From Escherichia phage vB-Eco-KMB40, in the sequence record OR539220.1: a DNA stretch of 64,000 nt. One strand, written 5' to 3'. The position numbers and the translations under genes were made by a program. The notes under the pieces were generated by a model that ran no database searches, was not told the origin of the DNA, and worked only from the letters and a program-made list of their open reading frames with translations. Shown piece by piece: positions 5,005 to 55,775 of this stretch (position 1 is the stretch's first letter; each line of letters opens with the position of its first letter).

Positions 5005-5622
5005 ATGTACCACTTTGTATATGAAACAACAAATCTAATAAACGGTAAAAAGTATATAGGAAAACACTCTACTGATGACTTGAATGATGGTTACCTTGGT
5101 TCCGGTAAGGCAATTCAGCAGGCTATAAAGAAATATGGTGAAAACAATTTCTCTAGAACAATACTAAAAGAGTTTAAAACTTCCGAAGAAGCGTACATGT
5201 ATGAAGAAGAAATTATAACTCCTGAAATAATAAAAAGCAAAAATTATTATAATATGAAACCTGGTGGAATTGGTGGAATTGTTATGACTACAGAGGTTAT
5301 AGCAAAGATGAAAGAATCTTCCGCTAAGAGATTTGAAAACTCACCGGGCACGGTATTAGGTACAACTTGTTACACTAATGGAACTAAAAATATTTTTATT
5401 AAACCTGGAGAACTTGTTCCAGAAGGATTTGTAAAAGGGATGGTTCATCCTAATAGAAAGTCCAGAAAAGGATGTAAAGTCAAACCGACTACCACAGGAA
5501 CTTTTTGGGTCAATAATGGCGCAATAAATAAATTAATACAACCAGACGGTATTATTCCCGACGGATTTATTAAAGGTCGTCTCATGAAAAGAGATTCTAA
5601 AGGCAAATTTAGTAAGGCATAA
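5005..5622 (+). CDS. segD: GIY-YIG homing endonuclease SegD (free-standing)
   Basis: 205 aa; N-terminal GIY-YIG motif (VYETTNLINGKKYIGKH); C-terminal NUMOD-like repeats (GTFWVNNG..., IPDGFIKGR). Confidence 0.85.
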   Translation: MYHFVYETTNLINGKKYIGKHSTDDLNDGYLGSGKAIQQAIKKYGENNFSRTILKEFKTSEEAYMYEEEIITPEIIKSKNYYNMKPGGIGGIVMTTEVIAKMKESSAKRFENSPGTVLGTTCYTNGTKNIFIKPGELVPEGFVKGMVHPNRKSRKGCKVKPTTTGTFWVNNGAINKLIQPDGIIPDGFIKGRLMKRDSKGKFSKA

Positions 5623-33058: not shown

Positions 33059-34228
33059 TTAAAAGTATTTTTTAAAACTCATCATAACTTTATCATCAAC
33101 ATCATTATCAATCTGTGCAACAAGGTAAGATGACAGTTCTACTTCTTGTGGCGCGGATTGAACATTATCAGAATTAAGATATTCACGAATCCAAGGATAT
33201 GGATGTTTAACCGGAGCATCGGTAATTGGGCATGGAAGACCACACTGTTTCATACGAGATACAGTTAAGTAATCAATAAAGCTCCACATGCTATTTGTAT
33301 TTAATCCAGGAACATCGCCATCTTTAAATAAATGAACTGCCCAATCTTTTTCTTGGCGGTTAACTTCCATGAAAATATCAACTGCTTCTTGTTCACACTC
33401 TTTAGCAATTTTAACCCATTCATCGCCGTCTGTTCCAAGCTGAAGTTGACGAATAATATATTGGGTGCCCTTGAGGTGGAGCTGTTCATCACGAGCAATG
33501 AACTTCATAATCTTGGCATTACCTTCCATGATTTCCATATTCTTGTGGAAGTTAAAGGTACATGCAAAAGATACATAAAAACGAATAGCTTCCAATGCAT
33601 TGATTACATGGAGGCAAAGATAAAGAGATTTCATCAGCTCTCGTTTGGCGTATTCAACGACTTTACCAAGTTCATCTTTGCGCCAACCTTCAGACAAAAT
33701 TCCTTCGTATTCTTCTTTAGCGTTTTCCCATTCACGGGTTTTAATCAGAACATCATCATAATAGCGACCGATAGATTCAGCACGTTTCATAATAGCTTCA
33801 TCTAATACAATCTCATCAAATACCTTCGATGGATCAGTATAAAGATTTCGCATGATATGAGTATATGAACGACTGTGAATAGTTTCACTAAAAGTCCATG
33901 TAGCAACCCATGTATCAAGACTTGGGTCTGAAATTAATGACATAAGTACAGCAGACGGCGCACGACCCTGAATGCTATCCAAAAGTGATTGATACTTCAA
34001 GTTGTTAGTAAAAATATTCTGCTGATACTGAGGAAGCTTATTAAACTGTGCAGCATCCATCATTAAGTTTACTTCTTCGGGACGCCAGAAAAATGATAAG
34101 GACTTCTCTGTAAGTTCTTCAAATACTCGATGCCGTTGAATATCATAACGCGCAATACCAAGACCTGAACCAAAAAACATAGGTTCTTTTAAAACATCAA
34201 CTGGATTTGTATTAAAAACTGTGCTCAT
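33059..34228 (-). CDS. nrdB: ribonucleotide reductase small subunit, contiguous (no intron)
   Basis: 389-aa uninterrupted ORF. Confidence 0.95.
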   Translation of the reverse strand: MSTVFNTNPVDVLKEPMFFGSGLGIARYDIQRHRVFEELTEKSLSFFWRPEEVNLMMDAAQFNKLPQYQQNIFTNNLKYQSLLDSIQGRAPSAVLMSLISDPSLDTWVATWTFSETIHSRSYTHIMRNLYTDPSKVFDEIVLDEAIMKRAESIGRYYDDVLIKTREWENAKEEYEGILSEGWRKDELGKVVEYAKRELMKSLYLCLHVINALEAIRFYVSFACTFNFHKNMEIMEGNAKIMKFIARDEQLHLKGTQYIIRQLQLGTDGDEWVKIAKECEQEAVDIFMEVNRQEKDWAVHLFKDGDVPGLNTNSMWSFIDYLTVSRMKQCGLPCPITDAPVKHPYPWIREYLNSDNVQSAPQEVELSSYLVAQIDNDVDDKVMMSFKKYF

Positions 34229-34279
34229 AAATTTTCCACTTAGTTAATAGATAGTGACTCGTCCATGAGTCAAATTATA

Positions 34280-36544
34280 TCATAATTTACAGGATGAACA
34301 ATCTTCAGCTTTTGGAGTTTCTATTTCATAATCATCAGTACCAGAACCATCACGGGTATTATGATAATAGAAATTTTTTCCGCCAAAATACCAGAAATAC
34401 AAAAGGTCATCAATCATTATTGACATTGGAACCTTTCCTTTTGGAAAAATCTGCGGGTCATAGTATGTATTTGCTGAAGCTGATTGACATACCCATTTCA
34501 GCATAATAGCTACCTGCGTAAGATAAGGTTTATTACCTTTCTTAGCTAATTTCCACGTATAATCATATAGGTCTATGTTATGCTCAATATTGGGCACGAC
34601 TTGATTAAAGGAGCCCTCTTTTGATTCTTTAACAGAGACTGGTCCACGTGGAGGCTCGATACCGTTTGTACTGTTAGAAACTTGGGAAGATGACTCACAT
34701 GGCATAAGTGCTGATAATGTGCTATTACGGATGCCAAAGAGCTTAAGGTCTTCCCGCAGCGCCGACCAGTCACAAACGTATTTTGGAGCTGCGATTTGGT
34801 CAATCTTTTTATTGTACCAGTCGATAGGTAATTCGCCTCGAGACCAACGAGTGTCTGAATAATATTCGCAAGGTCCTTTTTCTTTGGCGAGCTTAATGGA
34901 TGCTTTAATGAGTCCATACTGTAATCTCTCAAATAGTTCATGTGTTAAATCGTTAGCATCTTCATAAGAAGCAAAGTTACTTGCCAGCCAAGCTGCATAG
35001 TTGGTAACACCTACACCGAGGTTACGACGCTTTTTAGCTTTTTCTGCTTCAGGAACTGGATATCCTTGGTAATCCAAAAGATTATCAAGAGCACGAACTT
35101 GAACTTCTGCCAATTCATTAATTTTATCTTGGTCTTGCCAATCGAAGTTATCCAACACAAATGCAGATAACGTGCACAAGCCAATTTCAGCATCAGGACT
35201 ATTCACATCATTTGTTGGAATAGCAATTTCACAACACAAGTTACTCTGACGAATAGGTGCCTTTTCACGAATAAACGGAGTATAGTTATTCGTATTATCA
35301 ATGAACTGTACATAAATCCTTGCTGTTCCTGAACGTTCAGTCATGAGCAATTCAAATAGTTCACGGGCTTTAATACGCTTTTTACGAATATTAGGGTCCT
35401 TTTCTGCTGCTTCGTATAATTCACGGAAACGGTCTTGGTCTTTAAAATAAGAATAATAAAGCTCTCCACCCATTTCATGCGGACTGAACAAAGTAATGTA
35501 ATCGTTCTTTCCGAATCGTTCCATCATCAAATCATTCAGTTGAACACCATAATCCATATGACGAATGCGGTTTTCTTCTACGCCTTTGTTATTTTTCAAA
35601 ACGAGAAGATTTTCAACTTCCAAATGCCAAATAGGATAATAAGCAGTAGCAGCGCCGCCACGAATTCCACCCTGTGAGCATGATTTAACAGCAGTCTGAA
35701 AATGTTTCCAAAAAGGAATAACCCCAGTATGGCGTACTTCACCCATGCCAATCTTAGAACCTTCGGCACGAATCATACCAACGTTAATACCAATTCCAGC
35801 GCGTTTAGAGATATATTCAACAATTGAAGCAGAAGCCTTATTGATAGACTTCAGCGAATCACCTGCCTCAATAACAACACATGAACTAAACTGTCGAGTC
35901 GGAGTACGGCAACCAGCCATAATAGGAGTTGGCAATGAAATCTGTCGAGTAGATACTGCTTCATAAAAACGGATAACATGTTTTAATCTATCAACAGGTT
36001 CATCTTGATGTAATGCCATTCCAATAGTCATAAATGCAAACTGTGGAGTTTCATAAATTTGACCAGTGGTTTTATCTTTAACTAAATATTTTTCTTTTAA
36101 TTGCATCGCCCCGGAATAAGTAAATTCCATATCCCGCTCGTGCTTAATTTTTGATTCTAAAAATGTAATTTCTTCTGCTGAATATTTTGACAATAATTCA
36201 GGGTCATATTTACCTTCATTTACACAGTAAGAAATATGGTCAATAAATGAACGTGGTTCATACTGCCCATAAACATGCTTACGAAGAGCAAACATTAAAC
36301 AGCGTGCAGCTACATATTGATAATCGGGCTCTTCAACCGAAATAGAATTCGCAGCGGCCTTAATGACAATAGTCTGAATATCATCAGTTGTCATTCCATC
36401 ACGGAGATAAGATTTAATATTTTCATATAATTCATAAGGATCTACTGATGTTCCCTCAGCTGCCCAAGATAAAACTTTAATAATTTTTTGTGGGTCAAAG
36501 CTCTGAGAAACACCACTACTTTTGATAACATTAATTAATTGCAT
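34280..36544 (-). CDS. nrdA: ribonucleotide reductase large subunit
   Basis: 754 aa; matches T4 NrdA. Confidence 0.95.
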   Translation of the reverse strand: MQLINVIKSSGVSQSFDPQKIIKVLSWAAEGTSVDPYELYENIKSYLRDGMTTDDIQTIVIKAAANSISVEEPDYQYVAARCLMFALRKHVYGQYEPRSFIDHISYCVNEGKYDPELLSKYSAEEITFLESKIKHERDMEFTYSGAMQLKEKYLVKDKTTGQIYETPQFAFMTIGMALHQDEPVDRLKHVIRFYEAVSTRQISLPTPIMAGCRTPTRQFSSCVVIEAGDSLKSINKASASIVEYISKRAGIGINVGMIRAEGSKIGMGEVRHTGVIPFWKHFQTAVKSCSQGGIRGGAATAYYPIWHLEVENLLVLKNNKGVEENRIRHMDYGVQLNDLMMERFGKNDYITLFSPHEMGGELYYSYFKDQDRFRELYEAAEKDPNIRKKRIKARELFELLMTERSGTARIYVQFIDNTNNYTPFIREKAPIRQSNLCCEIAIPTNDVNSPDAEIGLCTLSAFVLDNFDWQDQDKINELAEVQVRALDNLLDYQGYPVPEAEKAKKRRNLGVGVTNYAAWLASNFASYEDANDLTHELFERLQYGLIKASIKLAKEKGPCEYYSDTRWSRGELPIDWYNKKIDQIAAPKYVCDWSALREDLKLFGIRNSTLSALMPCESSSQVSNSTNGIEPPRGPVSVKESKEGSFNQVVPNIEHNIDLYDYTWKLAKKGNKPYLTQVAIMLKWVCQSASANTYYDPQIFPKGKVPMSIMIDDLLYFWYFGGKNFYYHNTRDGSGTDDYEIETPKAEDCSSCKL

Positions 36545-37101: not shown

Positions 37102-37962
37102 TTATACCGCCATCTTTCCTTTAATTGGCGGGTGAGATACATAGTTGTTAAGAACGAAATCTTTAGGTCTAAGTTTAAGAACATATTTTAATTGTTCTTT
37201 AGTAGAAAGATATCGGAATTTATAAGGTAGACCACTTATTACCAGCTCACAAAGCTCTTTAGGTTCACGCCTCAATATTTCTTTACACTGTTCTACGTGA
37301 TTCATATAGATATGAGTATTACCACCAGAAAATATCAAATCTCCTGGAATAAGATTACACATCTTAGCTACAATATGAACTAACGTAGCATATGATGCAA
37401 TATTAAATGGAAGACCGAGAAAAACATCTACCGAACGTTGATACCACTGCAAATCCAAATAGCCATTACGCACATTAAACTGATAGAACATATGACAAGG
37501 CGGTAATGCCATATATTTAAGTTCAGCTGGATTCCATGCTGAAACAATTTGACGCCTATCATTTGGCAGTTTTTTAATACGATCAACAACTTCTATAATT
37601 TGGTCTACACCACCAAAATCACGCCACTGTTTTCCATAAATTGGACCAAGTTCACCGCTATGGTATCCTAAATCTTTTGCTTGATTTTCGTAATTTTCAT
37701 CCCAGACTGTTTTGCCTTGAATTAATGAATCATGCTGAATTAATCGTAAATCATTGACATTTGTGCTTCCTGATAAAAACCAAAGCAGCTCAGCAATGCA
37801 AGCTTTCCAAGCGAGCTTTTTAGTTGTTACTGCAGGAAAACCTTTGGTTAAATCCCAACGCAATTTAGTACCGAACAAAGCAATTGTTCCTGTGCCTGTT
37901 CGGTCATCGGTTTCATAACCATTTTCAAAAATGTCTTTAATTAAATCTTGGTATTGTTTCAT
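37102..37962 (-). CDS. td: thymidylate synthase, contiguous (no intron)
   Basis: 286-aa uninterrupted ORF; MKQYQDLIKDIFENGYETDDRTGTGT... Confidence 0.95.
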   Translation of the reverse strand: MKQYQDLIKDIFENGYETDDRTGTGTIALFGTKLRWDLTKGFPAVTTKKLAWKACIAELLWFLSGSTNVNDLRLIQHDSLIQGKTVWDENYENQAKDLGYHSGELGPIYGKQWRDFGGVDQIIEVVDRIKKLPNDRRQIVSAWNPAELKYMALPPCHMFYQFNVRNGYLDLQWYQRSVDVFLGLPFNIASYATLVHIVAKMCNLIPGDLIFSGGNTHIYMNHVEQCKEILRREPKELCELVISGLPYKFRYLSTKEQLKYVLKLRPKDFVLNNYVSHPPIKGKMAV

Positions 37963-38374: not shown

Positions 38375-39293
<919 letters not shown>

Positions 39294-39385
39294 TATATTT
39301 TCCTCAAATTCATTTAAATCAAGACTATGCAATTTTTAAAGCATTGCATAATAGAATTCATCATTCATAAACTCAAATACAAAAA

Positions 39386-39745
39386 TTATATTATCTCCCA
39401 TCGAAAAGGGTCAGGAGCATATCCGATAGAGTTAATCATTTTAACTAAAGTTACCATTCCTTTGTTAACTGCTTGTGCGATTTCATCAAAAACTTCATCG
39501 CTATCATCATAAAGGTCATTAAAAAGTTCTAACACGTTCTTCTGAACTTTTAATTTATGACCAACAATCTCGCCTACAGTAAATTCGTTTCCGCCGATTC
39601 CAGTGTAAAACGTAATTACACCAGTTAACAGACTTTCGCGAGAATCTAGGTCATGTGATAAATTAATATAAGCCATCCCGGGTGCAGTTTTAAGTTGGCA
39701 ACGAATTCTTACTTGGGTAATTCCGGTTACATGAATGTCGGACAT
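39386..39745 (-). CDS. hypothetical protein
   Basis: 119-aa ORF. Confidence 0.5.
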   Translation of the reverse strand: MSDIHVTGITQVRIRCQLKTAPGMAYINLSHDLDSRESLLTGVITFYTGIGGNEFTVGEIVGHKLKVQKNVLELFNDLYDDSDEVFDEIAQAVNKGMVTLVKMINSIGYAPDPFRWEII

Positions 39746-39998: not shown

Positions 39999-40024
39999 TT
40001 TATTCTCCTCAAGTTGATAGGGTA

Positions 40025-40054
40025 ATAGTATCACACTACTACCCTGTTGTAAAC
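40025..40054 (-). promoter_or_regulatory. early promoter
   Basis: Minus GTTTAC (plus 40049-40054), 18 nt, TACTAT, then leader CCCTATCAAC. Confidence 0.5.
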
Positions 40055-40056
40055 AA

Positions 40057-40359
40057 TTATTTTTGAATTTTATCGAGCCACTTACCAAGCTTAATCATTT
40101 CTTTAATAGCCTTTTCCATACTTCTGAACTTAACCAATAGAGGATAGGTATCGACACCCATAACTAAACTGGTTACAAGACTGTGTTCACCCACAAGCCA
40201 TAACGAATACGTTTGAATATCGAGTCCGTAATTTCTGTCTTTATGGACCCGTACACCCATCACTTCAAATTTCTCACTAGCTTTTTCTACCGCATCCAGG
40301 AAATCATCTTTAGTCATATTAGGCCTTAAAAGTTTTTTGCAAAAGTTCAATGATTTCAT
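40057..40359 (-). CDS. hypothetical protein
   Basis: 100-aa ORF; alternative ATG at 40317. Confidence 0.45.
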   Translation of the reverse strand: MKSLNFCKKLLRPNMTKDDFLDAVEKASEKFEVMGVRVHKDRNYGLDIQTYSLWLVGEHSLVTSLVMGVDTYPLLVKFRSMEKAIKEMIKLGKWLDKIQK

Positions 40360-40684
40360 CTACATTGTTTTCATCAACAATGCAGTGAATTTTTGTTACG
40401 CCAGAAACCTTGTCTTTAACTTCATCCTCTTCAGAAGTCGGTTCTTTATATTCGCGGAAACAATGAAATTCGTCTTCACAAACGTTAAAGTAAAAATGCT
40501 TTCCATTTGCGCATTCAATGTGTTTTATTACTCTAAATCCATCAACAAAGAAAGCTTCTTTAACTTCAAACCATCCGCCGTTTTCTTGAATAATTTTAAC
40601 TATTGATGAATTAGAACGTGGGCGATAATTAATAAATGTATCAATAAGTCTTGGAACAAGCTCATACTTTTTGCCGATATACAT
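40319..40684 (-). CDS. hypothetical protein
   Basis: 121 aa from ATG 40684 with RBS GAGGAAA. Confidence 0.5.
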   Translation of the reverse strand: MYIGKKYELVPRLIDTFINYRPRSNSSIVKIIQENGGWFEVKEAFFVDGFRVIKHIECANGKHFYFNVCEDEFHCFREYKEPTSEEDEVKDKVSGVTKIHCIVDENNVDEIIELLQKTFKA

Positions 40685-40699
40685 TACGGTTTCCTCATT

Positions 40700-40739
40700 T
40701 TGATAGGGGCTTGATAGGGGCTTGATAGCCCCTTGATAA
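40700..40739. repeat. 11-bp tandem repeat (about 3.6 copies) with perfect palindrome GGGGCTTGATAGCCCC
   Basis: TTGATAGGGGC, TTGATAGGGGC, TTGATAGCCCC, TTGATAA; fills the spacer between two minus-strand ORFs. Confidence 0.7.
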
Positions 40740-42020: not shown

Positions 42021-42090
42021 TTTATTTCCTTTTTAATTTAATTTAATTAACAGTTGGTGCTATGACACTTTACCTCATAGCTGGCATAAT
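42021..42090 (-). promoter_or_regulatory. gene 32 translational operator (pseudoknot plus UUAAA repeats)
   Basis: Minus-strand leader GCUAUGAGGUAAAGUGUCAUAGCACCAACUGUUAAUUAAAUUAAAUUAAAAAGGAAAUAAAAUG matches the T4 autoregulatory leader as recalled. Confidence 0.65.
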
Positions 42091-42707
42091 TCGCAATACT
42101 CTGGGTCTTCGAGAGGTATCCAACCTGAGTTGAAATACTTTACCATCGATTTAGCAGTTGTATCAGTTATATTTATATTACCTTTAACTCTTCGCCATCC
42201 AGGAGTTTTACCGTACAGATTAGAGGATAATAATAACACATAATTCTCGTAAGCAATATGAGATAATTTCCAAGACTCTATATTAGCTCGTGATGTTTTC
42301 CAAGGTCTAAAATCGTCACGGTTCATATAATTAGCCAATCTCATATGCTCTCTAACTTCCGGGTCTTTAGCTGGATGAGTTTCACCACTCACACCAAATC
42401 CACCACCAGCATATACCAGATTAAAATAGTCTGGATTATCTCTGGCATTTACTTCAAGTTGGTATTTTCGTTCTGCTTCAATAACATCCAAGTCATCATC
42501 AATTTGAATTATTTTAACGCTCGGTTTTTGAAGCATTACCGCATTCAAAAATCTTTTTTGTTTACATGAGCTCCAGTATTCCTTTCCGGAAGAGTCATAT
42601 ATTATTCCGTTCTCAAATGAGCAATTTAATTTACTACCGATATAGTAGTATGGCGGAGTCTTATTTTTGACACGGTCTTCAAATGTAAACCAATATACTA
42701 TATTCAT
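42075..42707 (-). CDS. segG: GIY-YIG homing endonuclease SegG (free-standing)
   Basis: 210 aa; N-terminal IVYWFTFEDRVKNKTPPYYYIGSK; between genes 59 and 32; stop codon lies inside gene 32 operator. Confidence 0.8.
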   Translation of the reverse strand: MNIVYWFTFEDRVKNKTPPYYYIGSKLNCSFENGIIYDSSGKEYWSSCKQKRFLNAVMLQKPSVKIIQIDDDLDVIEAERKYQLEVNARDNPDYFNLVYAGGGFGVSGETHPAKDPEVREHMRLANYMNRDDFRPWKTSRANIESWKLSHIAYENYVLLLSSNLYGKTPGWRRVKGNINITDTTAKSMVKYFNSGWIPLEDPEYCELCQL

Positions 42708-44932: not shown

Positions 44933-44940
44933 TATAAATA
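44933..44940 (+). promoter_or_regulatory. late promoter TATAAATA for gene 34
   Basis: Exact octamer 35 nt upstream of gene 34 ATG; RBS AGGAG. Confidence 0.55.
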
Positions 44941-44974: not shown

Positions 44975-47900
44975 ATGGCCGAGATTAAAAGAAAGTTCAG
45001 AGCAGAAGACGGTCTGGACGCAGGTGGCGATAAAATAATCAACGTAGCTTTAGCTGATCGTACCGTAGGAACTGACGGTGTTAACGTTGATTACTTAATT
45101 CAAGAAAACACAGTTCAACAATATGATCCAACTCGTGGATATTTAAAAGATTTTGTAATCATTTATGATAACCGCTTTTGGGCTGCTATAAATGATATTC
45201 CAAAACCAGCAGGAGCTTTTAATAGCGTACGATGGAGAGCGTTACGTACTGATGCAAACTGGACAACTGTTTCGTCAGGACCTTATCAATTAAAATCAGG
45301 CGAATCGATTTCAGTTAACACTGCAGCGGGTAATGACATTACATTTACTTTGCCATCTTCTCCGATTGATGGTGATACTATCGTTCTCCAAGATATTGGA
45401 GGAAAACCTGGAGTTAACCAGGTTTTAATTACAGCTCCGGTACAAAGCATTGTAAACTTTAGAGGTCAACAAGTACGCTCAGTACTAATGACTCATCCAA
45501 AATCACAGATAGTTTTAATTTTTAGTAATCGTCTGTGGCAAATGTATGTTGCTGATTATAGCAGAGAAGCGGCAGTTGTAACGCCAGCGAGTCTTTATCA
45601 AGCGCAATCAAACGATTTTATCGTGCGTAGATTTACTTCTGCTTCAGCAATTAATATTAAACTTCCTAGATTTGCTAATCATGGGGATATTATTAATTTT
45701 GTTGATTTAGATAAATTAAATCCGTTATATCATACTATCGTTACTACATACGATGAAACGACTTCAGTACAAGAAGTTGGAACTCATTCCATTGAAGGCC
45801 GTACATCTATTGATGGTTTCTTAATGTTTGATGATAATGAGAAATTGTGGAGATTATTTGACGGGGATAGTAAAGCACGTTTACGCATTATAACAACTAA
45901 TTCAAACATCCGTCCAAATGAAGAAGTCATGGTATTTGGCGCGAATAATGGAACAACTCAAACAATTGAACTTCAGCTTCCGACTGATATTTCTGTTGGT
46001 GATACTGTCAAAATTTCCATGAATTACATGAGAAAAGGACAAACAGTTAAAATCAAAGCTGCCGGTGAAGATAAAATTGCTTCTTCAGTTCAATTGTTGC
46101 AATTTCCAAAACGTTCAGAATACCCACCTGAAACTAAATGGGTGACTGTTCAAGAATTAGTTTTTAATGGCGAAACCAATTATGTTCCAGTTTTACAGCT
46201 TGCTTATATCGAAGATTCCGATGGAAAATATTGGGTTGTACAGCAAAACGTTCCAACTGTAGAAAGAGTAGACTCTTTAAATAATTCTACTAGAGCAAGA
46301 TTAGGTGTAATTGCATTAGCTACACAGGCTCAAGCTAATGCAGATTTAGAAAATTCTCCACAAAAAGAATTGGCAATTACTCCAGAAACGTTAGCTAATC
46401 GTACTGCTACAGAAACTCGTAGAGGTATTGCAAGAATAGCAACAACTGCGCAAGTAAACCAGGATACCACATTCTCTTTTGCAGATGACCTTATCATTAC
46501 TCCTAAAAAGCTGAATGAAAGAACTGCTACAGAAACTCGCAGAGGTGTCGCAGAAATTGCTACGCAGCAGGAAACTAATACAGGTACTGATGATACTACA
46601 ATCATCACTCCTAAAAAGCTTCAAGCTCGACAAGGTTCTGAATCATTATCTGGTATTGTAACCTTTGTATCTACCGCAGGAGCTACTCCAGCTTCTAGTC
46701 GTGAATTAAATGGTACAAATGTTTACAATAAAAACACTAATAATTTAGTTGTTTCGCCTAAAGCTTTAGATCAATATAAAGCTACTCCAACGCAACAAGG
46801 TGCAGTAATTTTAGCAGTTGAAAGTGAAGTAATTGCTGGACAGAGTCAAGAAGGATGGGCAAATGCGGTTGTAACGCCAGAAACGTTACATAAAAAGACA
46901 TCAACTGATGGAAGAATTGGTTTAATTGAAATTGCTACGCAAAGTGAAGTTAATACAGGAACTGATTATACTCGCGCAGTCACTCCTAAAACTTTAAATG
47001 ACCGTAGAGCAACTGAAAGTTTAAGTGGTATAGCTGAAATTGCTACGCAAGTTGAATTCGACGCAGGCGTCGACGATACTCGTATCTCTACACCATTAAA
47101 AATTAAAACTAGATTTAATAGTACTGATCGTACTTCTGTTGTTGCTCTATCTGGATTAGTTGAATCAGGAACTCTCTGGGACCATTATACCCTTAATATT
47201 CTTGAAGCAAATGAGACACAACGTGGTACACTTCGTGTGGCTACACAAGTTGAAGCTGCTGCCGGAAAATTAGATAATGTTTTAATAACTCCTAAAAAGC
47301 TTTTAGGTACTAAATCTACCGAATCGCAAGAAGGTGTTATTAAAGTTGCAACTCAGTCTGAAACTGTGGCTGGAACGTCAGCGAACACTGCTGTATCTCC
47401 AAAAAATTTAAAATGGATTGTGCAGAGTGAACCTACCTGGGCAGCTACTACTGCAGTAAGAGGTTTTGTTAAAACTTCATCTGGTTCAATTACATTTGTC
47501 GGTAATGATACAGTCGGTTCTACCCAAGATTTAGAACTGTATGAGAAAAATAGCTATGCAGTATCACCATACGAATTAAACCGTGTATTAGCAAATTATT
47601 TACCGTTAAAAGCAAAAGCTGCTGATAGTAATTTATTGGATGGTCTAGATTCATCTCAGTTCATTCGTAGGGACATTGCGCAGACGGTTAATGGTTCACT
47701 AACCTTAACCCAACAAACGAATCTGAGTGCCCCTCTTGTATCATCTAGTACTGCTACGTTTGGTGGTTCAGTTTCGGCAAATAGTGTACTAACTATTTCT
47801 AATACTGGAACAGAAACTCATCTGATTTTTGAGAAAGGACCTCAAACTGGAACTAACCAAGCACAGACGGTGACTATTAGAGTGTGGGGTAATCAATTTA

Positions 47901-48844
47901 GTGGTGAATCAGATGCAACGCGTTCTACTGTATTTGAAGTTAGTGATGAAACATCTTATCACTTTTATTCTCAACGCGATAAAGATGGTAATATAGCATT
48001 TAGCATTAATGGTACTGTAATGCCAATAAATGTGAATGCTTTAGGTTCTTTGAACGCGAACGGCGCTGCAACATTCGGCAGTTCAGTTACTGCTAATGGC
48101 GAATTTATCAGTAAATCGTCGAATGCTTTTAGAGCAATAAACGGTGATTATGGATTCTTTATTCGTAATGATGCTGCTAACACCTATTTTATGCTTACTG
48201 CATCAGGTGATCAGACTGGTGGATTTAATGGATTACGTCCTTTAGCTATTAATAATGCATCTGGCCAAGTAACGATTGGCGAAAGCTTAATCATTGCCAA
48301 AGGTGCTACTATAAATTCAGGTGGTTTGACTGTTAACTCGAGAATTCGTTCTCAGGGTACTAAAACATCTGATTTATACACCCGCGCGCCAACATCTGAT
48401 ACAGTAGGATTCTGGTCAATCGATATTAACGATTCAGCCACTTATAACCAGTTCCCTGGTTATTTTAAAATGGTTGAAAAAACTAATGAAGTGACTGGAC
48501 TTCCATACTTAGAACGTGGCGAAGAAGTTAAATCTCCTGGTACACTGACTCAGTTTGGTAACACACTTGATTCGCTTTACCAAGATTGGATTACTTATCC
48601 AACAACACCAGAAGCACGTACCACTCGTTGGACACGCACATGGCAGAAAACCAAAAACTCTTGGTCAAGTTTTGTTCAGGTATTTGATGGGGGTAACCCT
48701 CCTCAGCCATCTGATATTGGTGCTTTACCATCTGATAATGCTATAATGGGGAATCTTACTATTCGTGATTTCTTACGAATTGGTAATGTTCGCATTGTTC
48801 CTGACCCAGTGAATAAAACGGTTAAATTTGAATGGGTTGAATAA
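44975..48844 (+). CDS. 34: long tail fibre proximal subunit gp34
   Basis: 1289 aa; matches T4 gp34 in length and sequence as recalled. Confidence 0.95.
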   Translation: MAEIKRKFRAEDGLDAGGDKIINVALADRTVGTDGVNVDYLIQENTVQQYDPTRGYLKDFVIIYDNRFWAAINDIPKPAGAFNSVRWRALRTDANWTTVSSGPYQLKSGESISVNTAAGNDITFTLPSSPIDGDTIVLQDIGGKPGVNQVLITAPVQSIVNFRGQQVRSVLMTHPKSQIVLIFSNRLWQMYVADYSREAAVVTPASLYQAQSNDFIVRRFTSASAINIKLPRFANHGDIINFVDLDKLNPLYHTIVTTYDETTSVQEVGTHSIEGRTSIDGFLMFDDNEKLWRLFDGDSKARLRIITTNSNIRPNEEVMVFGANNGTTQTIELQLPTDISVGDTVKISMNYMRKGQTVKIKAAGEDKIASSVQLLQFPKRSEYPPETKWVTVQELVFNGETNYVPVLQLAYIEDSDGKYWVVQQNVPTVERVDSLNNSTRARLGVIALATQAQANADLENSPQKELAITPETLANRTATETRRGIARIATTAQVNQDTTFSFADDLIITPKKLNERTATETRRGVAEIATQQETNTGTDDTTIITPKKLQARQGSESLSGIVTFVSTAGATPASSRELNGTNVYNKNTNNLVVSPKALDQYKATPTQQGAVILAVESEVIAGQSQEGWANAVVTPETLHKKTSTDGRIGLIEIATQSEVNTGTDYTRAVTPKTLNDRRATESLSGIAEIATQVEFDAGVDDTRISTPLKIKTRFNSTDRTSVVALSGLVESGTLWDHYTLNILEANETQRGTLRVATQVEAAAGKLDNVLITPKKLLGTKSTESQEGVIKVATQSETVAGTSANTAVSPKNLKWIVQSEPTWAATTAVRGFVKTSSGSITFVGNDTVGSTQDLELYEKNSYAVSPYELNRVLANYLPLKAKAADSNLLDGLDSSQFIRRDIAQTVNGSLTLTQQTNLSAPLVSSSTATFGGSVSANSVLTISNTGTETHLIFEKGPQTGTNQAQTVTIRVWGNQFSGESDATRSTVFEVSDETSYHFYSQRDKDGNIAFSINGTVMPINVNALGSLNANGAATFGSSVTANGEFISKSSNAFRAINGDYGFFIRNDAANTYFMLTASGDQTGGFNGLRPLAINNASGQVTIGESLIIAKGATINSGGLTVNSRIRSQGTKTSDLYTRAPTSDTVGFWSIDINDSATYNQFPGYFKMVEKTNEVTGLPYLERGEEVKSPGTLTQFGNTLDSLYQDWITYPTTPEARTTRWTRTWQKTKNSWSSFVQVFDGGNPPQPSDIGALPSDNAIMGNLTIRDFLRIGNVRIVPDPVNKTVKFEWVE
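46380..47370 (+). repeat. periodic roughly 40-residue fibre repeats within gene 34
   Basis: Six or more copies of T-(A)TE-(S/T)-x-x-G-(I/V)-x-x-(I/V)-AT-Q motif, e.g. TATETRRGIARIATTAQ, TATETRRGVAEIATQQE, STESQEGVIKVATQSE. Confidence 0.45.
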
Positions 48845-48852
48845 GAGGTATT

Positions 48853-49968
48853 ATGGAAAAATTTATGGCAGAGTTTGGACAAGGATACGTCCAAACGCCA
48901 TTTTTATCGGAAAGCAATTCAGTAAGATACAAAATAAGTATAGCGGGTTCTTGCCCGCTTTCTACCGCAGGACCATATGTTAAATTTCAGGATAATCCTG
49001 TAGGAAATCAAACATTTAGCACAGGTCTTCATTTAAGAGTTTTTGATCCTTCTACAGGAGCATTAGTTGATAGTAAGTCATATGCTTTTTCTACTTCAAA
49101 TGATACTACATCAACTGCTTTTGTTAGTTTCATGAATTCTTTGACGAATAATAGAATTGTTGCTATATTAACTAGCGGAAAGGTTAATTTTCCTCCTGAA
49201 GTAGTATCTTGGTTAAGAACAGCAGGAACGTCTGCTTTTCCATCTGACTCTGTACTGTCAAGATTTGATGTATCATATGCTGCTTTTTACACTTCTTCTA
49301 AAAGAGCTATCGCATTAGAGCATGTTAAACTGAGTAACAGAAAAAGCACAGATGATTATCAAACTATTTTAGATGTTGTATTTGACAGTTTAGAAGACGT
49401 TGGAGCTACCGGGTTTCCAAGAAGAACATATGAAAGCGTTGAGCAGTTTATGTCAGAGGTTGGTGGAACTAATAACGAAATTGCGCGTCTACCAACTTCA
49501 GCTGCTATAAGTAAATTATCTGATTATAATTTAATTCCAGGCGATGTTCTTTATCTTAAAGCACAACTATATGCTGATGCCGATTTACTTGCTCTTGGAA
49601 CTACGAATATATCCATTAGATTTTATAATGAATCGGATGGATATATTTCTTCAACATATGCTGAGTTTACTGGTCAAGCTGGGTCATGGGAATTAAAGGA
49701 AGACTATGTAGTTGTTCCTGAAAATGCGGTAGGATTTACGATATATGCACAAAGAACTGCCCAAGCAGGTCAAGGAGGCATGAGAAATTTAAGCTTTTCT
49801 GAAGTATCAAGAAATGGCGGCATTTCAAAACCTGCTGAATTTGGCGTCAACGGTATTCGCGTTAATTATGTCTGTGAATCCGCTTCGCCTCCAGATATAA
49901 TGGTACTTCCTACACAAGCATCGTCTAAAACTGGTAAAGTGTTTGGACAAGAATTTAGAGAAGTTTAA
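48853..49968 (+). CDS. 35: long tail fibre hinge protein gp35
   Basis: 371 aa; position and size as T4 gp35. Confidence 0.85.
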   Translation: MEKFMAEFGQGYVQTPFLSESNSVRYKISIAGSCPLSTAGPYVKFQDNPVGNQTFSTGLHLRVFDPSTGALVDSKSYAFSTSNDTTSTAFVSFMNSLTNNRIVAILTSGKVNFPPEVVSWLRTAGTSAFPSDSVLSRFDVSYAAFYTSSKRAIALEHVKLSNRKSTDDYQTILDVVFDSLEDVGATGFPRRTYESVEQFMSEVGGTNNEIARLPTSAAISKLSDYNLIPGDVLYLKAQLYADADLLALGTTNISIRFYNESDGYISSTYAEFTGQAGSWELKEDYVVVPENAVGFTIYAQRTAQAGQGGMRNLSFSEVSRNGGISKPAEFGVNGIRVNYVCESASPPDIMVLPTQASSKTGKVFGQEFREV

Positions 49969-49999: not shown

Positions 50000-50007
50000 T
50001 ATAAATA
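50000..50007 (+). promoter_or_regulatory. late promoter TATAAATA for genes 36-37-38
   Basis: Exact octamer 24 nt upstream of gene 36 ATG. Confidence 0.55.
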
Positions 50008-50030
50008 CTATTAAAATAAAGGGGCATACA

Positions 50031-50687
50031 ATGGCTGATTTAAAAGTAGGTTCAACAACCGGAGGCTCTGTCATTTGGCATCAAGGAAATTTTCCATTGA
50101 ATCCAGCTGGTGACGATGTACTCTATAAATCATTTAAAATATATTCAGAATATAATAAACCACAAGCTGCTGATAACGATTTCGTTTCTAAAGCTAATGG
50201 TGGTACTTATTTAAATAAAGTAATTTTTAATAAAGGAATGACTGTTCCTGGCGCAGGGTCAGGTGATAATGGTATTTTTGCTGGTCCTGGTGATAGTGCC
50301 ACGTATGATACTACAAATATGGATATTGTTTCGTGGTATGGTATTGGTTTTAAATCATCACAAGGAACAGCAGGTAGAACTGTAGTAATTAACACGCGAA
50401 ATGGAGATATTAGCTCAAAGGGTGTAATTGAAGCATCACAAATCCGTGTAACTTCGTTATCACCGGTAAATAATTATGACCTTACGCGGAAAGATTATGT
50501 TGATGGAGCAATAAATATTGTTACAGCAAACGCAAACTCTAGGGTATTACGCTCTGGAGACACTATGACAGGAAATTTAACTGCGCCAAACCTTTTTTCA
50601 CAGAATCCTGCGTCTCAACCCTCGCATGTTCCACGATTTGATCAAATTGTTATTAAGGATTCTGTTCAAGATTTCGGCTATTATTAA
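50031..50687 (+). CDS. 36: long tail fibre distal connector gp36
   Basis: 218 aa; position and size as T4 gp36. Confidence 0.85.
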   Translation: MADLKVGSTTGGSVIWHQGNFPLNPAGDDVLYKSFKIYSEYNKPQAADNDFVSKANGGTYLNKVIFNKGMTVPGAGSGDNGIFAGPGDSATYDTTNMDIVSWYGIGFKSSQGTAGRTVVINTRNGDISSKGVIEASQIRVTSLSPVNNYDLTRKDYVDGAINIVTANANSRVLRSGDTMTGNLTAPNLFSQNPASQPSHVPRFDQIVIKDSVQDFGYY

Positions 50688-50695
50688 GAGGACTT

Positions 50696-53600
50696 ATGGC
50701 TACTTTAAAACAAATACAATTTAAAAGAAGCAAAACTGCAGGAGCACGTCCTGCCGCTTCAGTATTAGCCGAAGGCGAATTGGCTATAAACTTAAAAGAC
50801 CGTGTACTTTTTACTAAAGATGACCAAGGAAATATTATTGATCTGGGTTTTGCTAAAGGCGGTAGTATTGACGGGAATGTTATTCATACAGGCAATTATA
50901 ACCAAACTGGCGATTATACTTTAGATGGCACCTTCACTCAGACTGGTAATTTTAATTTAACTGGTATTGCTCGAGTAACTCGCGATATTATTGCCGCTGG
51001 GCAGATTATGACTGAAGGCGGAGAACTTATTACAAAAAGTTCAGGTACAGCGCATGTTCGTTTTTTCGATGGCAATAGTCGCGAACGTGGAATCATTTAT
51101 TCCCCGGCTAATGATGGTTTAACTACACAAGTACTTAATATCAGGGTTCAAGACTACGCCGCTGGTAGCGAAAGCACTTATGCATTTTCAGGCAGTGGCC
51201 TATTTACTTCACCTGAAGTATCAGCATGGAAATCTATTTCGTCTCCACAAATTCTGACCGACAAAGTTATTACAAACGGGAAGAAGGCAGGAGATTATGA
51301 TATCTATTCATTAGCAAATAACACCCCATTATCTGAAAGCACTACTGCTATTAATCATCTTCGTGTCATGCGTAATGCCGTAGGTGCAGGTATTTTTCAT
51401 GAGGTTAAAGACAATGATGGGATAACTTGGTATACAGGTGATGGACTTGACGCTTATCTTTGGTCGTTTACATGGTCCGGTGGATTGAAAGCGGGTCATT
51501 CTATTTCTATAGGCACCCCAGGCGGCCCTAAAGGATATTCTGAATTAGGAACGTCCTCAATTGCTTTAGGAGATAATGATACTGGGTTTAAATGGCATCA
51601 AGACGGATATTATTTTAGCGTTAATAATGGAACGAAAACATTTTTATTTAGTCCTAGCGAAACAACTAGCCTAAGAAAATTTGTAGCTGGATATTCTACC
51701 AACGGAACCGATTTAACTACTCCTCCAACTGAAAACTATGCTCTTGCTACTGTAGTGACATACCACGATAATAACGCGTTTGGAGATGGTCAGACTCTTT
51801 TAGGATATTATCAAGGCGGTAATTATCATCACTATTTCCGTGGTAAGGGTACTACAAACATTAATACTCATGGCGGTTTGTTAGTTACTCCTGGTAATAT
51901 TGACGTTATTGGTGGTTCTGTTAATATCGATGGTATAAATAATGCTTCTACACTGTTGTTTAGAGGTAACACAACTGGTAGTAGTTCAGTTGATAATATG
52001 ACAATTTCTGTTTGGGGTAATACGTTTACTAATCCTAGTGTAGGTAATCGTAAAAATGTCATGGAAATTTCTGATCCAACTAGTTGGATGAGCTATATTC
52101 AAAGACTTACAACAGGTGAAGTAGAAATGAACGTTAACGGTTCATTTGAATCATCTGGTGTTACTGCTGGAAATAGGGGAGTTCACACAACAGGCGAAAT
52201 TTCATCTGGAGCAGTGAATGCTCTTCGCATTTGGAATGCAGATTATGGAGCTATTTTTAGACGTTCAGAAGGAAGTCTTCATATTATTCCAACTGCTTAT
52301 GGTGAAGGTAAAAATGGTGATATCGGTCCACTTCGCCCGTTTAGTATGGCTTTAGATACTGGTAAAGTTACTATTCCAGATTTACAATCAAGTTACAATA
52401 CGTTCGCAGCAAACGGCTATATTAAATTTACTGGTCATGGCGCAGGCGCTGGTGGTTATGATATTCAATATGTTCAAGCGGCTCCTATTTTCCAGGAAAT
52501 CGATGATGATGCTGTAAGCAAATATTATCCTATTGTTAAACAGAAGTTTTTAAACGGTAAAGCCGTTTGGTCTTTAGGTACTGAAATTAATTCGGGTACA
52601 TTCGTTATTCATCATCTGAAAGAAGATGGATCACAAGGCCATACGTCTCGTTTTAATCAAGACGGTACTGTTAACTTCCCTGATAACGTTCAGGTCGGCG
52701 GCGGTGAAGCTACTATTGCTCGTAATGGTAATATTTTCTCGGATATTTGGAAATCGTTTACTTCTGCAGGAGACACTACAAATATTCGCGATGCTATTGC
52801 GACTCGTGTTTCGAAAGAAGGCGACACGATGACAGGTCGCTTAACTCTTAATGCAAACTCTGATGCCATCGTTATTAATAGCACGGCAACCGAATCTGGC
52901 TATTTGAAAGGACAAAAAGCAGGCGTTGATAACTGGTATGTAGGTAATGGTGGTGCTGATAATGCCATATCGTTTTATAGTTTCCAAAATAGATCAGGCA
53001 TATATGTTAATAATGGTGGTGATATTGCTTTAAACCCGGAAGGGTCTGCCACTTTTAATTTTAATAGGGACCGAATTTATATAAATGGGTCAGTCTGGAC
53101 CGCACACCAGGCTGGTGACTGGGGTAACCAATGGCGTCAAGAAGCTCCTATATTTGTGGATTTTGGTAGTGTCGGTAATGATAGTTATTATCCTATTATT
53201 AAAGGAAAATCTGTTATTACGAATGAAGGATACATATCTGGTGTTGATTTCGGTATGCGACGCATTCCTAATAACTGGGCTCAGGCTATTATCCGTGTTG
53301 GTAACCAGGAAAATGCTAGCGATCCGCAAGCTATCTTCGAATTCCACTATAATGGAAACATGTACGTTCCTGACATGGTTAAAGCTGGAGTAAGAATATC
53401 AGCTGGTGGAGGTGACCCTGTATGGACAGGCGCATGTGTTGTTATTGGTGATAATGACACCGGATTAGTTCATGGTGGTGACGGCCGAATCAATATGGTT
53501 GCCAATGGTATACATATTGCAAACTGGGGAGCAGGCTATCAATCTCATCCTGGGCTTTGGGATTCAACCGGTGCTTTTTGGACAGAAGTTGGAAGAGCTA

Positions 53601-54007
53601 TCGTTTCTCATGGGCATCTCGTTCAGGCAAATGATAGTTATTCAACGTTTGTCCGTGATGTTTATGTCCGTTCTGATATTCGTGTTAAAAAAGACCTCGT
53701 TAAATTTGAAAATGCTTCTCAGAAGCTTTCTAAAATTAACGGTTACACTTATATGCAGAAACGTGGAACGGACGAAGAAGGCAATCAGAAATGGGAACCT
53801 AACGCCGGTTTGATAGCCCAAGAAGTTCAAGCTATTTTACCAGAATTAGTTGAAGGTGACCCTGATGGCGAAGCTTTACTTCGTTTGAACTATAACGGTG
53901 TAATTGGTTTAAATACAGCTGCAATAAATGAACATACTACAGAAATTGCGGAACTTAAATCAGAAATTGAAGAACTTAAAGCATTAGTTAAATCATTGTT
54001 AAAATAA
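50696..54007 (+). CDS. 37: long tail fibre distal subunit gp37 with C-terminal intramolecular chaperone domain
   Basis: 1103 aa; C-terminal roughly 110 aa (SDIRVKKD...) resemble the autoproteolytic chaperone domain of T2-type gp37. Confidence 0.85.
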
Positions 54008-54011
54008 TAAG

Positions 54012-54027
54012 AGGGGCTTCTGCCCCT
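54012..54027 (+). promoter_or_regulatory. hairpin AGGGGC-TTCT-GCCCCT between genes 37 and 38
   Basis: 6-bp GC stem directly upstream of gene 38 RBS GGAGG. Confidence 0.35.
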
Positions 54028-54038
54028 TGGAGGTTTAT

Positions 54039-54815
54039 ATGGCAGTAACAGGACCGTGGGTAGGATCGTCTGCAGTAGTTAATACAGGACAAAATTGGAT
54101 GGGTGGCGCGGCCCAACGATTAAGAATGGGCATTCCGTTCTGGATGAGTAATATGATAGGCCGATCTGTTGAAATAATTCACACGCTTGGAGCAGACCAT
54201 AACTTCAATGGTCAATGGTTCCGAGATAGATGTTTTGAGGCAGGTAGTGCACCTATAGTGTTTAATATCACTGGAGATTTAGTATCATATTCTAAAGATG
54301 TTCCTTTATTCTTCATGTACGGGGATACACCAAATGAATATGTTCAGTTGAATATACATGGCGTAACGATGTATGGTCGTGGCGGGAACGGCGGTAGCAA
54401 TAGTCCTGGCTCAGCTGGGGGTCATTGTATTCAAAATGATATTGGTGGGAGACTAAGAATTAATAATGGCGGAGCTATTGCAGGTGGCGGTGGCGGCGGC
54501 GGTGGCGGTTATTATTCTCCTTTTTCACAAATGAGATTAACCTTTGGCGGTGGCGGTGGGCGTCCGTTTGGTGCACCTGGCGGATCTATTGATATGCAAT
54601 CAGGCGCAACTGCTGGTACTATTTCTGCGCCTGGAGCAGGGTCTGTGAACGGTATCTATAATGGCGGGAATGGTGGTGAAGTTGGCTCCGCAGGAGGTAG
54701 ATGTAATATTCGTGGTCAAGGATATGAATACGATGGCGGAGCTGCTGGTTATGCCGTCATAGGGTCTACGCCGACATGGCAAAACGTTGGAGCAATATAT
54801 GGTCCAAGAGTATAA
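54039..54815 (+). CDS. 38: T2-type receptor-binding adhesin gp38 with glycine-rich motifs
   Basis: 258 aa from ATG 54039 (supplied ORF starts at TTG 54027); poly-Gly runs; unlike the T4-type gp38 chaperone. Confidence 0.85.
54483..54509 (+). repeat. run of nine glycine codons (GGY) in gene 38
   Basis: GGT GGC GGT GGC GGC GGC GGT GGC GGT; a second shorter run at 54545-54560. Confidence 0.6.
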
Positions 54816-54845
54816 TTTGAATAAATATCCTTAAAAGGAGGGTCT

Positions 54846-55502
54846 ATGGCAGCACCTAGAATATCATTTTCGCCCTCTGATATTCTGTTGGGTGTTCTAG
54901 ATCGCTTGTTCAAAGATAACGCTACCGGGAAAGTTCTTGCTTCCCGGGTAGCTGTCGTAATTCTTTTATTTATGATGGCGATTGTTTGGTATAGGGGAGA
55001 TAGTTTCTTTGAGTACTATAAGCAATCAAAGTATGAAACATACAGTGAAATTATTGAAAAGGAAAGAAATGCACGCTTTGAATCTGTCGCCCTGGAACAA
55101 CTCCAGATAGTTCATATATCATCTGAGGCAGACTTTAGTGCGGTGTATTCTTTCCGCCCTAAAAACTTAAACTATTTTGTTGATATTATAGCATATGAAG
55201 GAAAATTACCTTCAACAATAAGTGAAAAATCACTTGGAGGATATCCTGTTGATAAAACTATGGATGAATATACAGTTCATTTAAATGGACGTCATTATTA
55301 TTCCAACTCAAAATTTGCTTTTTTACCAACTAAAAAGCCTACTCCCGAGATAAACTACATGTACAGTTGTCCATATTTTAATTTGGATAATATCTATGCT
55401 GGAACGATAACCATGTACTGGTATAGAAATGATCATATAAGTAATGACCGCCTTGAATCAATATGTGCTCAGGCGGCCAGAATATTAGGAAGGGCTAAAT
55501 AA
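54846..55502 (+). CDS. t: holin T
   Basis: 218 aa; single N-terminal TM segment, large C-terminal domain; matches T4 holin. Confidence 0.9.
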   Translation: MAAPRISFSPSDILLGVLDRLFKDNATGKVLASRVAVVILLFMMAIVWYRGDSFFEYYKQSKYETYSEIIEKERNARFESVALEQLQIVHISSEADFSAVYSFRPKNLNYFVDIIAYEGKLPSTISEKSLGGYPVDKTMDEYTVHLNGRHYYSNSKFAFLPTKKPTPEINYMYSCPYFNLDNIYAGTITMYWYRNDHISNDRLESICAQAARILGRAK

Positions 55503-55775
55503 TTATTTGTTTGTATACATCTCTAGATATCGATATACACCCTCAAAACCCTCGTTGAATTCGTCGATGAGGGTTTTCTTATCTTCTTGAGTTAATTCAG
55601 AAACAATTTTACGGAATGAATTCTGATTTAATTTTCTACCTTCATGCGTTACTCCAATCTCATTTAGAAATGCAATAAAATTAGCACGATTCTCAACAAT
55701 ATCTTCTCTGGAAAATTTAATCAAAATAGACGCAACAGTAATAATTTCACGAACTGTATCAATGTTTTTATTCAT
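55503..55775 (-). CDS. asiA: anti-sigma70 factor AsiA
   Basis: 90 aa; MNKNIDTVREIITVASILIKFSRED... matches T4 AsiA. Confidence 0.9.
   Translation of the reverse strand: MNKNIDTVREIITVASILIKFSREDIVENRANFIAFLNEIGVTHEGRKLNQNSFRKIVSELTQEDKKTLIDEFNEGFEGVYRYLEMYTNK

Follow-up and report, generated by a model that had tools for sequence, protein, structure and literature searches.

What kind of receptor-recognition tip does Escherichia phage vB-Eco-KMB40 (vKMB40) carry on its long tail fibers, which outer-membrane protein does that tip recognize, and did it reach this genome as an exchanged host-range cassette? vKMB40 is a published Tequatrovirus infecting uropathogenic Escherichia coli (UPEC), for which variation in gp36, gp37, and gp38 was already pointed out by its authors (PMC11162368; OR539220; Arch Virol 2024). 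Here, we examined a 64,000-nt stretch from its sequence record (OR539220.1; hereafter "the window", numbered from its first nucleotide) and focused on genes 37 and 38 (g37 and g38) at 50696–54815. A previous interpretation made from the DNA letters alone, which we call the sequence-only reading, had described these genes as a T2-type module, with an autoproteolytic chaperone domain on gp37 and a glycine-rich gp38 adhesin, exchanged into an otherwise T4-like backbone. In this analysis, we established the open reading frames (ORFs), domain memberships, homology to solved structures, predicted fold, conservation map, and co-variation of the module, and with very high confidence we read it as the canonical long-tail-fiber receptor-recognition tip of a Tequatrovirus, in which a chaperone domain on gp37, predicted to cut itself off, is combined with a glycine-rich gp38 adhesin. 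The architecture proposed earlier stands, while the proposed history does not.

Architecture of the gp37–gp38 tip

Both ORFs were found where the sequence-only reading had placed them, on the + strand, as are all features of the two genes given below. g37 (50696–54007), the distal half-fiber subunit precursor, encodes 1103 aa plus stop, and g38 (54039–54815), interpreted as the monomeric tail-fiber tip adhesin, encodes 258 aa plus stop. The gp37 translation is letter-for-letter that of WPJ71691.1 ("long tail fiber, distal subunit", vB-Eco-KMB40), which is recorded only from this phage, and gp38 is letter-for-letter WPJ71692.1 of vB-Eco-KMB40.

gp37 ends in a C-terminal intramolecular chaperone domain of the endosialidase-type Peptidase_S74 family (aa 993–1103; 53672–54004), formed by a 111-aa stretch, SDIRVKK...KSLLK, whose first residue is aa 993 (nt 53672). 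The family profile, PF13884, matched aa 993–1052 (E = 2e-12; 47.7 bits vs a cut-off of 22), beginning exactly at Ser993 and covering profile positions 1–57 of 58. Family motifs are present as S993-D-I-R-V-K998 and a downstream GLIAQE, and the domain ends in a coiled-coil-like helix, so that the claim of a roughly 110-residue, autoproteolytic-type chaperone domain closing gp37 is borne out. Immediately upstream, the mature gp37 tip (aa 912–992, ending in DVYVR; 53429–53671) aligns with the tip of S16 gp37 (6F45_A) and by analogy is predicted to form a trimeric beta-prism platform for gp38 docking. Tip and chaperone domain together (aa 912–1103) matched 6F45_A at E = 2.9e-43, and the chaperone domain alone did so at E = 2.7e-34. 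Weak matches of the last 121 gp37 residues to the MYRF ICA domain (7DC3) and to the tail fiber 8JOV were also obtained; the MYRF ICA domain is homologous to phage intramolecular chaperone domains.

When DVYVR^SDIRVKK of vKMB40 gp37 is aligned on the S16 cleavage site, DLNVS^SDRRIKK (the caret marking the cut), autocleavage is predicted between Arg992 and Ser993, which would leave a mature gp37 of 992 aa, with Ser993 and Lys998 as a putative dyad. A catalytic role of the Ser/Lys dyad is said to have been described for endoNF by Schulz and colleagues in 2010. In S16 gp37, the last 113 residues are an intramolecular chaperone that is auto-cleaved after trimerization, exposing the gp38 docking surface (PMC7917993), and the passage of PMC3157838 that cites Drexler 1986 describes proteolytic processing of T2 and T6 gp37. 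Among 18 loci with an adhesin-type g38, the chaperone domain encoded upstream showed the strict S-D/E-x-R-x-K pattern in 14, and a clearly homologous tail was found in three more.

Comparison with the best-studied relatives shows both the generality of this architecture and the divergence of its parts. An S74-type domain (DVYIR^SDSRLK, 113 aa) likewise closes T6 gp37, but this protein is 994 aa long, its tip and chaperone domain belong to another subtype (24–27% identical), and it is without the S16-like tip segment of vKMB40 gp37. In gp37 of T2, the phage that gives the type its name (Drexler, Riede and Henning 1986), the cleavage motif reads VYIR^SDIRLK, the part from the serine to the C-terminus measures 99 aa, and a glycine-rich gp38 adhesin is encoded directly downstream; however, T2 gp37 is 1341 aa long and 28–35% identical. 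S16 (6F45; Dunne et al. 2018), with which the cleavage motifs align and gp38 aligns over its full length, is the structural template for the tryptophan prongs, the polyglycine-II sandwich, and autocleavage, although its gp38 is ~46% identical with unrelated hypervariable loops, its target is Salmonella OmpC, and the residue before its cleavage site is Ser where vKMB40 gp37 has Arg. Farther upstream, the gp37 shaft of vKMB40 includes a Gp34_trimer-like domain (aa 450–550; 52043–52345; Pfam PF21446, E = 2.4e-7) that aligns to the solved C-terminal region of T4 gp34 (4UXE/5NXF, E ~3e-12).

gp38 matched two profiles over their full lengths: PF21721 (Gp38_N; E = 1.4e-21, profile positions 1–40 of 40) and PF05268 (GP38 adhesin; E = 1.5e-71, positions 1–218 of 218), the latter covering aa 45–258. 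It also aligned with the PP01 receptor-binding domain 9V85_A (E = 7.9e-81; 9V85 is identified as a PP01 structure in PMC12892980) and, over aa 1–255, with full-length S16 gp38 (6F45_D, E = 2.1e-52). An AlphaFold2 model built on 109 sequences (predicted local distance difference test, pLDDT, 88.5) was searched against the Protein Data Bank (PDB) with Foldseek and returned 9V85 (E = 3e-26; template modeling (TM) scores 0.76/0.88) and 6F45_D (E = 2e-23; TM 0.73/0.75), with nothing else in the PDB below E = 1. These profile, structure, and fold matches, together with the lack of similarity to T4 gp38, agree with the earlier assignment of gp38 as a T2/T6-type adhesin rather than a T4-type assembly chaperone. 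The "T2-type" label itself fits only loosely: gp38 has 50% identity with its T2 counterpart but 86% with that of T6, and 94% with T6 when the receptor-binding domain is taken alone. By homology to S16 (6F45) and PP01 (9V85), and from gp38 swap experiments, gp38 would sit at the fiber tip as a single, receptor-binding copy.

Three parts can be distinguished in gp38. The N-terminal attachment domain (aa 1–40; 54039–54158), which corresponds to Gp38_N, is a three-helix bundle with modeled helices at aa 8–16, 21–27, and 36–39. Across 110 homologues its W7 shows no variation and W20 almost none, and W7, W20, and W35 are all invariant in a five-sequence set (vKMB40, 121/2022-2B, FL23, T6, and T2). 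In S16, a single gp38 monomer docks on gp37 via three conserved tryptophans of its N-terminal helices (PMC6851490), and the S16 structure is the basis of the role in gp37-tip docking (PMC6851490; PMC7917993). Next comes a central beta-helix core (aa 45–118; 54171–54392), which appears as strands in the model and is the most conserved part (mean column entropy of 0.76 bits vs 1.13 in the C-terminal part), its 99–100% identity extending to adhesins of the OmpA type, among them those of FL18 and M1. The remaining C-terminal part is rich in glycine (31% of residues 120–258, vs 24% of gp38 as a whole).

The glycine run noted in the sequence-only reading, G9 (GGGGGGGGG, aa 149–157), lies exactly at 54483–54509, and a second run, GGGGG (aa 170–174), followed by a conserved RPFG, lies at 54546–54560. 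An entropy map of vKMB40 gp38 and 109 homologues (108 from a 5.8-billion-protein collection, plus T2 gp38) showed the glycine runs to be 91–100% conserved (91% for G9 and 100% for G5) and, between them, four high-entropy segments at aa 119–126, 157–169, 180–208, and 219–233, as had been supposed for the sequence between the glycine islands. Hypervariable segment (HVS) 1 (aa 119–126, GSNSPGSA) maps to 54393–54416; HVS2 (aa 158–169), with the highest entropy (mean 2.0 bits), to 54510–54545; HVS3 (aa 179–208), whose two loops surround the conserved core SG..A..PG, to 54573–54662; and HVS4 (aa 219–233) to 54693–54737. The published scheme for these adhesins counts four HVSs and five glycine-rich motifs (Trojet et al. 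2011, PMC3157838; Lutz et al. 2025, PMC12032242), and since the four-segment entropy pattern reproduces it, the structural part of the sequence-only reading was correct. The G9 run corresponds to "151-GGGGGGGG-158" of S16 gp38 (PMC6851490) and is assigned as the polyglycine-II helix at the center of the sandwich domain.

Two observations on the homologues are recorded for completeness. One 303-aa protein (P0074), from an assembly labelled E. coli, joins PF13884 and gp38 domains in a single chain, and this fusion of a gp37 chaperone tail to gp38 is probably a gene-calling or frameshift artefact. Further, several gp38 homologues carry bacterial source names (E. coli, Salmonella enterica, and even Bacillus cereus), which suggests phage DNA in bacterial assemblies.

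The probable receptor

Published genetics in relatives show that the hypervariable segments set receptor choice (PMC3157838; PMC12032242; bioRxiv 10.64898/2026.04.02.716166), as the earlier interpretation had anticipated. We compared the receptor-binding domain (gp38 aa 119–258) with those of phages with assigned receptors and obtained identities of 96% to FL23 and 94% to T6 (both Tsx), 72% to FL18, 68% to M1, and 55% to FL08 and AV119 (all OmpA), and 49% to T2 (FadL and OmpF; PMC3157838). HVS1 and HVS2 are identical to those of FL23, with HVS2 one residue off T6, and differences from FL23 are found at two residues of HVS3 (A192 and A200) and at Y229 and D232 of HVS4; overall, gp38 carries the T6-like set of four hypervariable segments by which the Tsx subgroup is recognized. 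FL23 and FL44 lose infectivity on tsx deletion (PMC12032242), T6 uses Tsx, and nearly all Tsx adhesins share essentially one set of four HVSs (PMC3157838). Because the receptor-binding domain is 96% and 94% identical to those of the Tsx-dependent FL23 and T6, and because Tsx adhesins share their HVS set, we consider the nucleoside channel Tsx, an outer-membrane beta-barrel, the probable target of vKMB40 gp38.

The same two Tsx-dependent Tequatroviruses, FL23 and FL44 (Lutz et al. 2025, PMC12032242), gave the closest DNA match over the full length of the module in the phage collection (95.3% over 4120 nt). Across the whole of gp38 they are 95% identical to vKMB40, with 96% for the receptor-binding domain, and they share its type of gp37 tip and chaperone domain (96–99%), whereas the gp38 N-terminal domain (83–87%) and the 3' third of g37 (just 85–92%) are more distant, and six substitutions separate the receptor-binding domains (A192G, A200S, Y229S, D232N, T244A, and Q248I). 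T6 shares the architecture and essentially the same four HVSs.

Several points weigh against this reading of the module and its target. The paper describing the KMB phages did not identify their receptors (PMC11162368). In relatives, very few residues can redirect an adhesin: one HVS3 change, Q206L in RB68, moves recognition from OmpF to OmpW (the RB51/RB68 pair; bioRxiv 10.64898/2026.04.02.716166), and a few HVS2/HVS3 residues separate PST from T6, with recognition of OmpA and of Yersinia gained (PMC3157838). The six receptor-binding-domain differences from FL23 (A192, A200, Y229, D232, T244, and Q248) make Tsx probable rather than certain. On the gp37 side, the Ser/Lys dyad was assigned by alignment only.

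The alternative that survives best keeps the architecture as described but assigns gp38 a receptor other than Tsx (OmpA, OmpF, OmpC, FadL, or OmpW), or a second receptor, through its HVS3 and HVS4 substitutions. It draws on the RB68 and PST precedents for switched or broadened specificity, on the phylogenetic closeness of OmpA "type 1" adhesins to Tsx adhesins (PMC12032242), on the presence of Y229, A192, and A200 in vKMB40 gp38 and their absence from FL23 and T6, and on the isolation of vKMB40 on UPEC in a paper that left its receptor unnamed (PMC11162368). Against it stand HVS1 and HVS2, which are the same as in Tsx-dependent FL23, a receptor-binding domain 94–96% identical to those of Tsx users vs no more than 72% for the OmpA, OmpC, and FadL adhesins in the comparison, and the near-uniformity of the four HVSs among Tsx adhesins. 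We regard this alternative as unlikely. Slightly less likely again is the narrower proposal that A192, A200, Y229, and D232 alter or broaden receptor use, for example toward UPEC Tsx loop variants or a second porin; if it were true, vKMB40 would be a natural few-residue specificity variant like PST or RB68.

Origin of the locus

With Tsx as the preferred target, there remains the question of how a T2/T6-type tip came to stand in this genome, which the sequence-only reading had explained by exchange of the host-range cassette into a T4-like backbone. By blastn, DNA homology to T4 breaks off at 50862 and is picked up again at 54821, the last stretch alignable to T4 DNA being that of the conserved gp37 N-terminus (~56 aa; 50696–50863), which forms the junction with gp36; the first 60 aa of gp37 are nearly identical to T4 and T2. 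A recent import of a T2/T6-type g37–g38 block into a T4 genome could draw on this gap, which brackets g37 (after codon 56) and g38, on flanks about 93–98% identical to T4, and on the presence of segG and segE, which T4 carries and which T2 and T6 are without at the segG site. The same brackets recur, however, against T2 (50923 to 54732) and largely against T6 (upstream homology to 50850), and a similar gap against T4, T2, and T6 means that the locus differs among all the classical T-evens. Nor is the backbone, 95.5% identical to T4 over 36.9 kb, nearer to T4 than to many adhesin-bearing Tequatroviruses (95.5–95.9%). Phage records with an adhesin-type gp38 number 879 vs 297 with the T4 type, and the literature describes T4 as the exception, in which lambda-like sequence took the place of g38 and of the 3' end of g37 (Trojet 2011, PMC3157838; Dunne and Leiman, CASP13 text, PMC6851490). 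Because the adhesin form is predominant and T4 is the phage that underwent replacement, the proposed direction of exchange has to be reversed: the adhesin architecture is the common form of the group, with no import into a T4 backbone.

The identity profile and the behavior of individual domains also argue against a single transfer. In 200-nt steps along the block, the best donor shifts every few hundred bases: FL23 is 96–100% identical (mostly 99–100%) over 50201–52600 and then 85–92% over most of 52601–53600, and 121/2022-2B is 65–91% identical through much of g37 and 99–100% identical at 53401–53600 and 54601–54815. A scan of IMG/VR with gp38 gave 13 loci, enough for a linkage and co-variation test and too few for statistics, and in this comparison the N-terminal domain of gp38 varied together with the tip and chaperone domain of gp37, with the receptor-binding domain assorting independently of all three. 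Three loci (L009, L011, and L013) pair an attachment unit 77–96% identical to that of vKMB40 with receptor-binding domains of 46–59% identity, and T6, L007, and L008 pair attachment units of 57% and 27–32% with receptor-binding domains of 87–94%. Likewise, a cluster representative with 155 members (P0002) joins a receptor-binding domain 99% identical to that of vKMB40 to a T6-like N-terminus (60%), and the OmpA adhesin of FL08 has an N-terminus 100% identical to that of vKMB40 gp38 and a receptor-binding domain 55% identical.

The two domains of gp38 hence have different closest relatives, and the supposition that gp37 and gp38 were exchanged as one block fails with the supposed direction: recurrence of the breakpoints against T2 and T6, the mosaic identity profile, and independent assortment of the gp38 domains led us to reject a single-block cassette transfer into T4, and we hold any recent import of the block into a T4 genome to be improbable. 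Judged by these identities, the locus is a fine-scale mosaic of the kind expected from recombination typical of T-even tail-fiber genes, with exchange finer than a cassette. Two patches outside the block, 47801–48200 in g34 and 50201–50600 in g36, share just 63–85% identity with T4 and T2, the one in g36 being 99–100% identical to FL23 and 121/2022-2B, which indicates that tail-fiber shuffling reaches upstream to g36 and the 3' part of g34.

A possible local substrate for such exchange was noted in the shaft. The motif APIF..(D/S)..YYPI(V/I)K occurs twice in gp37 (52523–52540 and 53186–53203, ~aa 597–616 and 817–836) and also in T2 and T4 gp37, and this conserved shaft motif could act as a recombination anchor. 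A search for DNA repeats in the module as recombination substrates found only short repeats of glycine codons and of the YYPI(V/I)K motif, no more than the protein motifs imply.

What vKMB40 does share with T4 at this locus is the gene order 34-35-36-37-38-t, the N-terminal ~56 aa of gp37, the flanks, and a shaft 35% identical to about aa 640 (T2 gp37 is likewise 35% identical, over aa 1–680); beyond about aa 640, T4 gp37 gave no alignment to vKMB40 gp37. T4 gp37 ends in Collar (PF07484) and Phage_fiber (PF03335) repeats with no S74 domain, whereas vKMB40 gp37 has neither, and a T4-type needle tip was rejected for it, there being no Collar domain and no His-x-His fiber repeats. A RefSeq note on T4 g38 describes the gp38 of the T2 subfamily as an unrelated adhesin and T4 gp38 as an assembly chaperone. 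The proposal that vKMB40 gp38 is a T4-like, non-virion assembly chaperone, with the gp37 C-terminal domain staying on the fiber and binding the receptor, can point to the position of the gene at that of T4 g38 and to homologue records labelled "distal long tail fiber assembly catalyst", but it has a negligible chance of being correct given that gp38 shows no similarity to the lambda Tfa-like chaperone T4 gp38 (BLASTP E = 1.9, best segment 12 residues), that its full-length homology and fold match are to adhesins crystallized on the fiber tip or with a mapped receptor-binding domain, that the cleavage motif is present in the gp37 S74 domain, and that a gp38 swap is a receptor swap in relatives (bioRxiv 10.64898/2026.04.02.716166).

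Locus layout, fiber assembly, and significance

The module lies in the usual T-even order, with g34 at 44975–48844, g35 (the gp35 fiber hinge protein) at 48853–49968, g36 at 50031–50687, and holin t at 54846–55502, gp36 and the holin being confirmed by Pfam. gp35 aa 58–127 matched the Pfam family ILEI ("Interleukin-like EMT inducer", PF15711; E = 1e-8), which is unexpected for a hinge protein. An exact T4-type late-promoter motif, TATAAATA, is present on the + strand at 50000–50007, 24 nt upstream of g36, and by its position is likely the start of a g36-g37-g38 late transcript; the motif recurs at 44933, ahead of g34. In the window as a whole the motif occurs 13 times vs a chance mean of 9, not significantly above chance, and a scan of 50000–55600 for sigma-70 promoters and terminators gave counts at the level of shuffled sequence.

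The stop of g37 and the ATG of g38 (54039) are 31 nt apart, with GGAGG 6 nt before the ATG. An alternative in-frame TTG start at 54027 (262 aa) is unlikely because it overlaps this ribosome-binding site. Between the g37 stop and the ribosome-binding site, a GC-rich hairpin (GAGGGGC-TTCT-GCCCCTT; 54011–54028, + strand) has a folding energy of -17.9 kcal/mol (z = -2.3). Hairpins occur at the g37/g38 junction in 19 of the 19 loci examined, T4, T2, and T6 included; stem sequences differ, and the loops are mostly of the UUCG type irrespective of the kind of g38 downstream. We rejected a classical terminator for the vKMB40 hairpin, which has no T-tract on the + strand, and it may instead stabilize the transcript or adjust the translation of gp38 in relation to that of gp37.

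Elsewhere in the window, the sequence-only reading had reported segD and segG. segG is present (42078–42707, - strand; 99.5% to T4 SegG), but the other gene is segE (5005–5619, + strand; 98.5% to T4 SegE). No segD was found in the window, T4 SegD just cross-matching segE at 46% identity, and the T4 segD site falls at or just past the left end of the window. tblastn gave no matches in the window for mobE, for the nrdB intron with I-TevIII, or for the td intron with I-TevI. Gaps in the T4 alignment lie at ~33561–34284 and 37407–37421 of the window vs 138457–140420 and 143540–144571 of T4. Four stretches gave no megablast alignment to T4 (16160–17851, 18531–19489, 38957–39742, and 40009–40711); they lie around the alt and frd / gene 32 regions and are probably variable accessory ORFs.

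Taken in order, assembly of the vKMB40 tip would begin with late expression of genes 36, 37, and 38. Three gp37 chains would then trimerize into the distal half-fiber, with their 111-aa S74 domains nucleating folding of the beta-helical tip, and each chain would cut itself at Arg992/Ser993 by means of the Ser993/Lys998 dyad, upon which the chaperone domain would depart. This would expose a flat triangular tip ending in DVYVR, on which one gp38 monomer might dock by its N-terminal three-helix bundle, Trp7, Trp20, and Trp35 filling three symmetry-related pockets. The C-terminal half of gp38 would fold into a polyglycine-II sandwich from the conserved glycine runs, and its hypervariable loops would point distally and bind an outer-membrane beta-barrel protein, most probably Tsx for this allele. 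Autocleavage, the 3:1 stoichiometry, tryptophan docking, and Tsx binding are carried over in this scheme from homologues.

The module is already known in kind from crystal structures, genetics, and receptor-prediction models, and its alleles are public and adequately annotated, so that its discovery value is little: it is a textbook host-range determinant of most T-even phages. The gain is a modest one, namely a Tsx prediction for a UPEC phage that is a therapeutic candidate and a map of residues for retargeting it. Where several phages of a cocktail all rely on Tsx, cross-resistance to the whole group could arise from a single tsx mutation.

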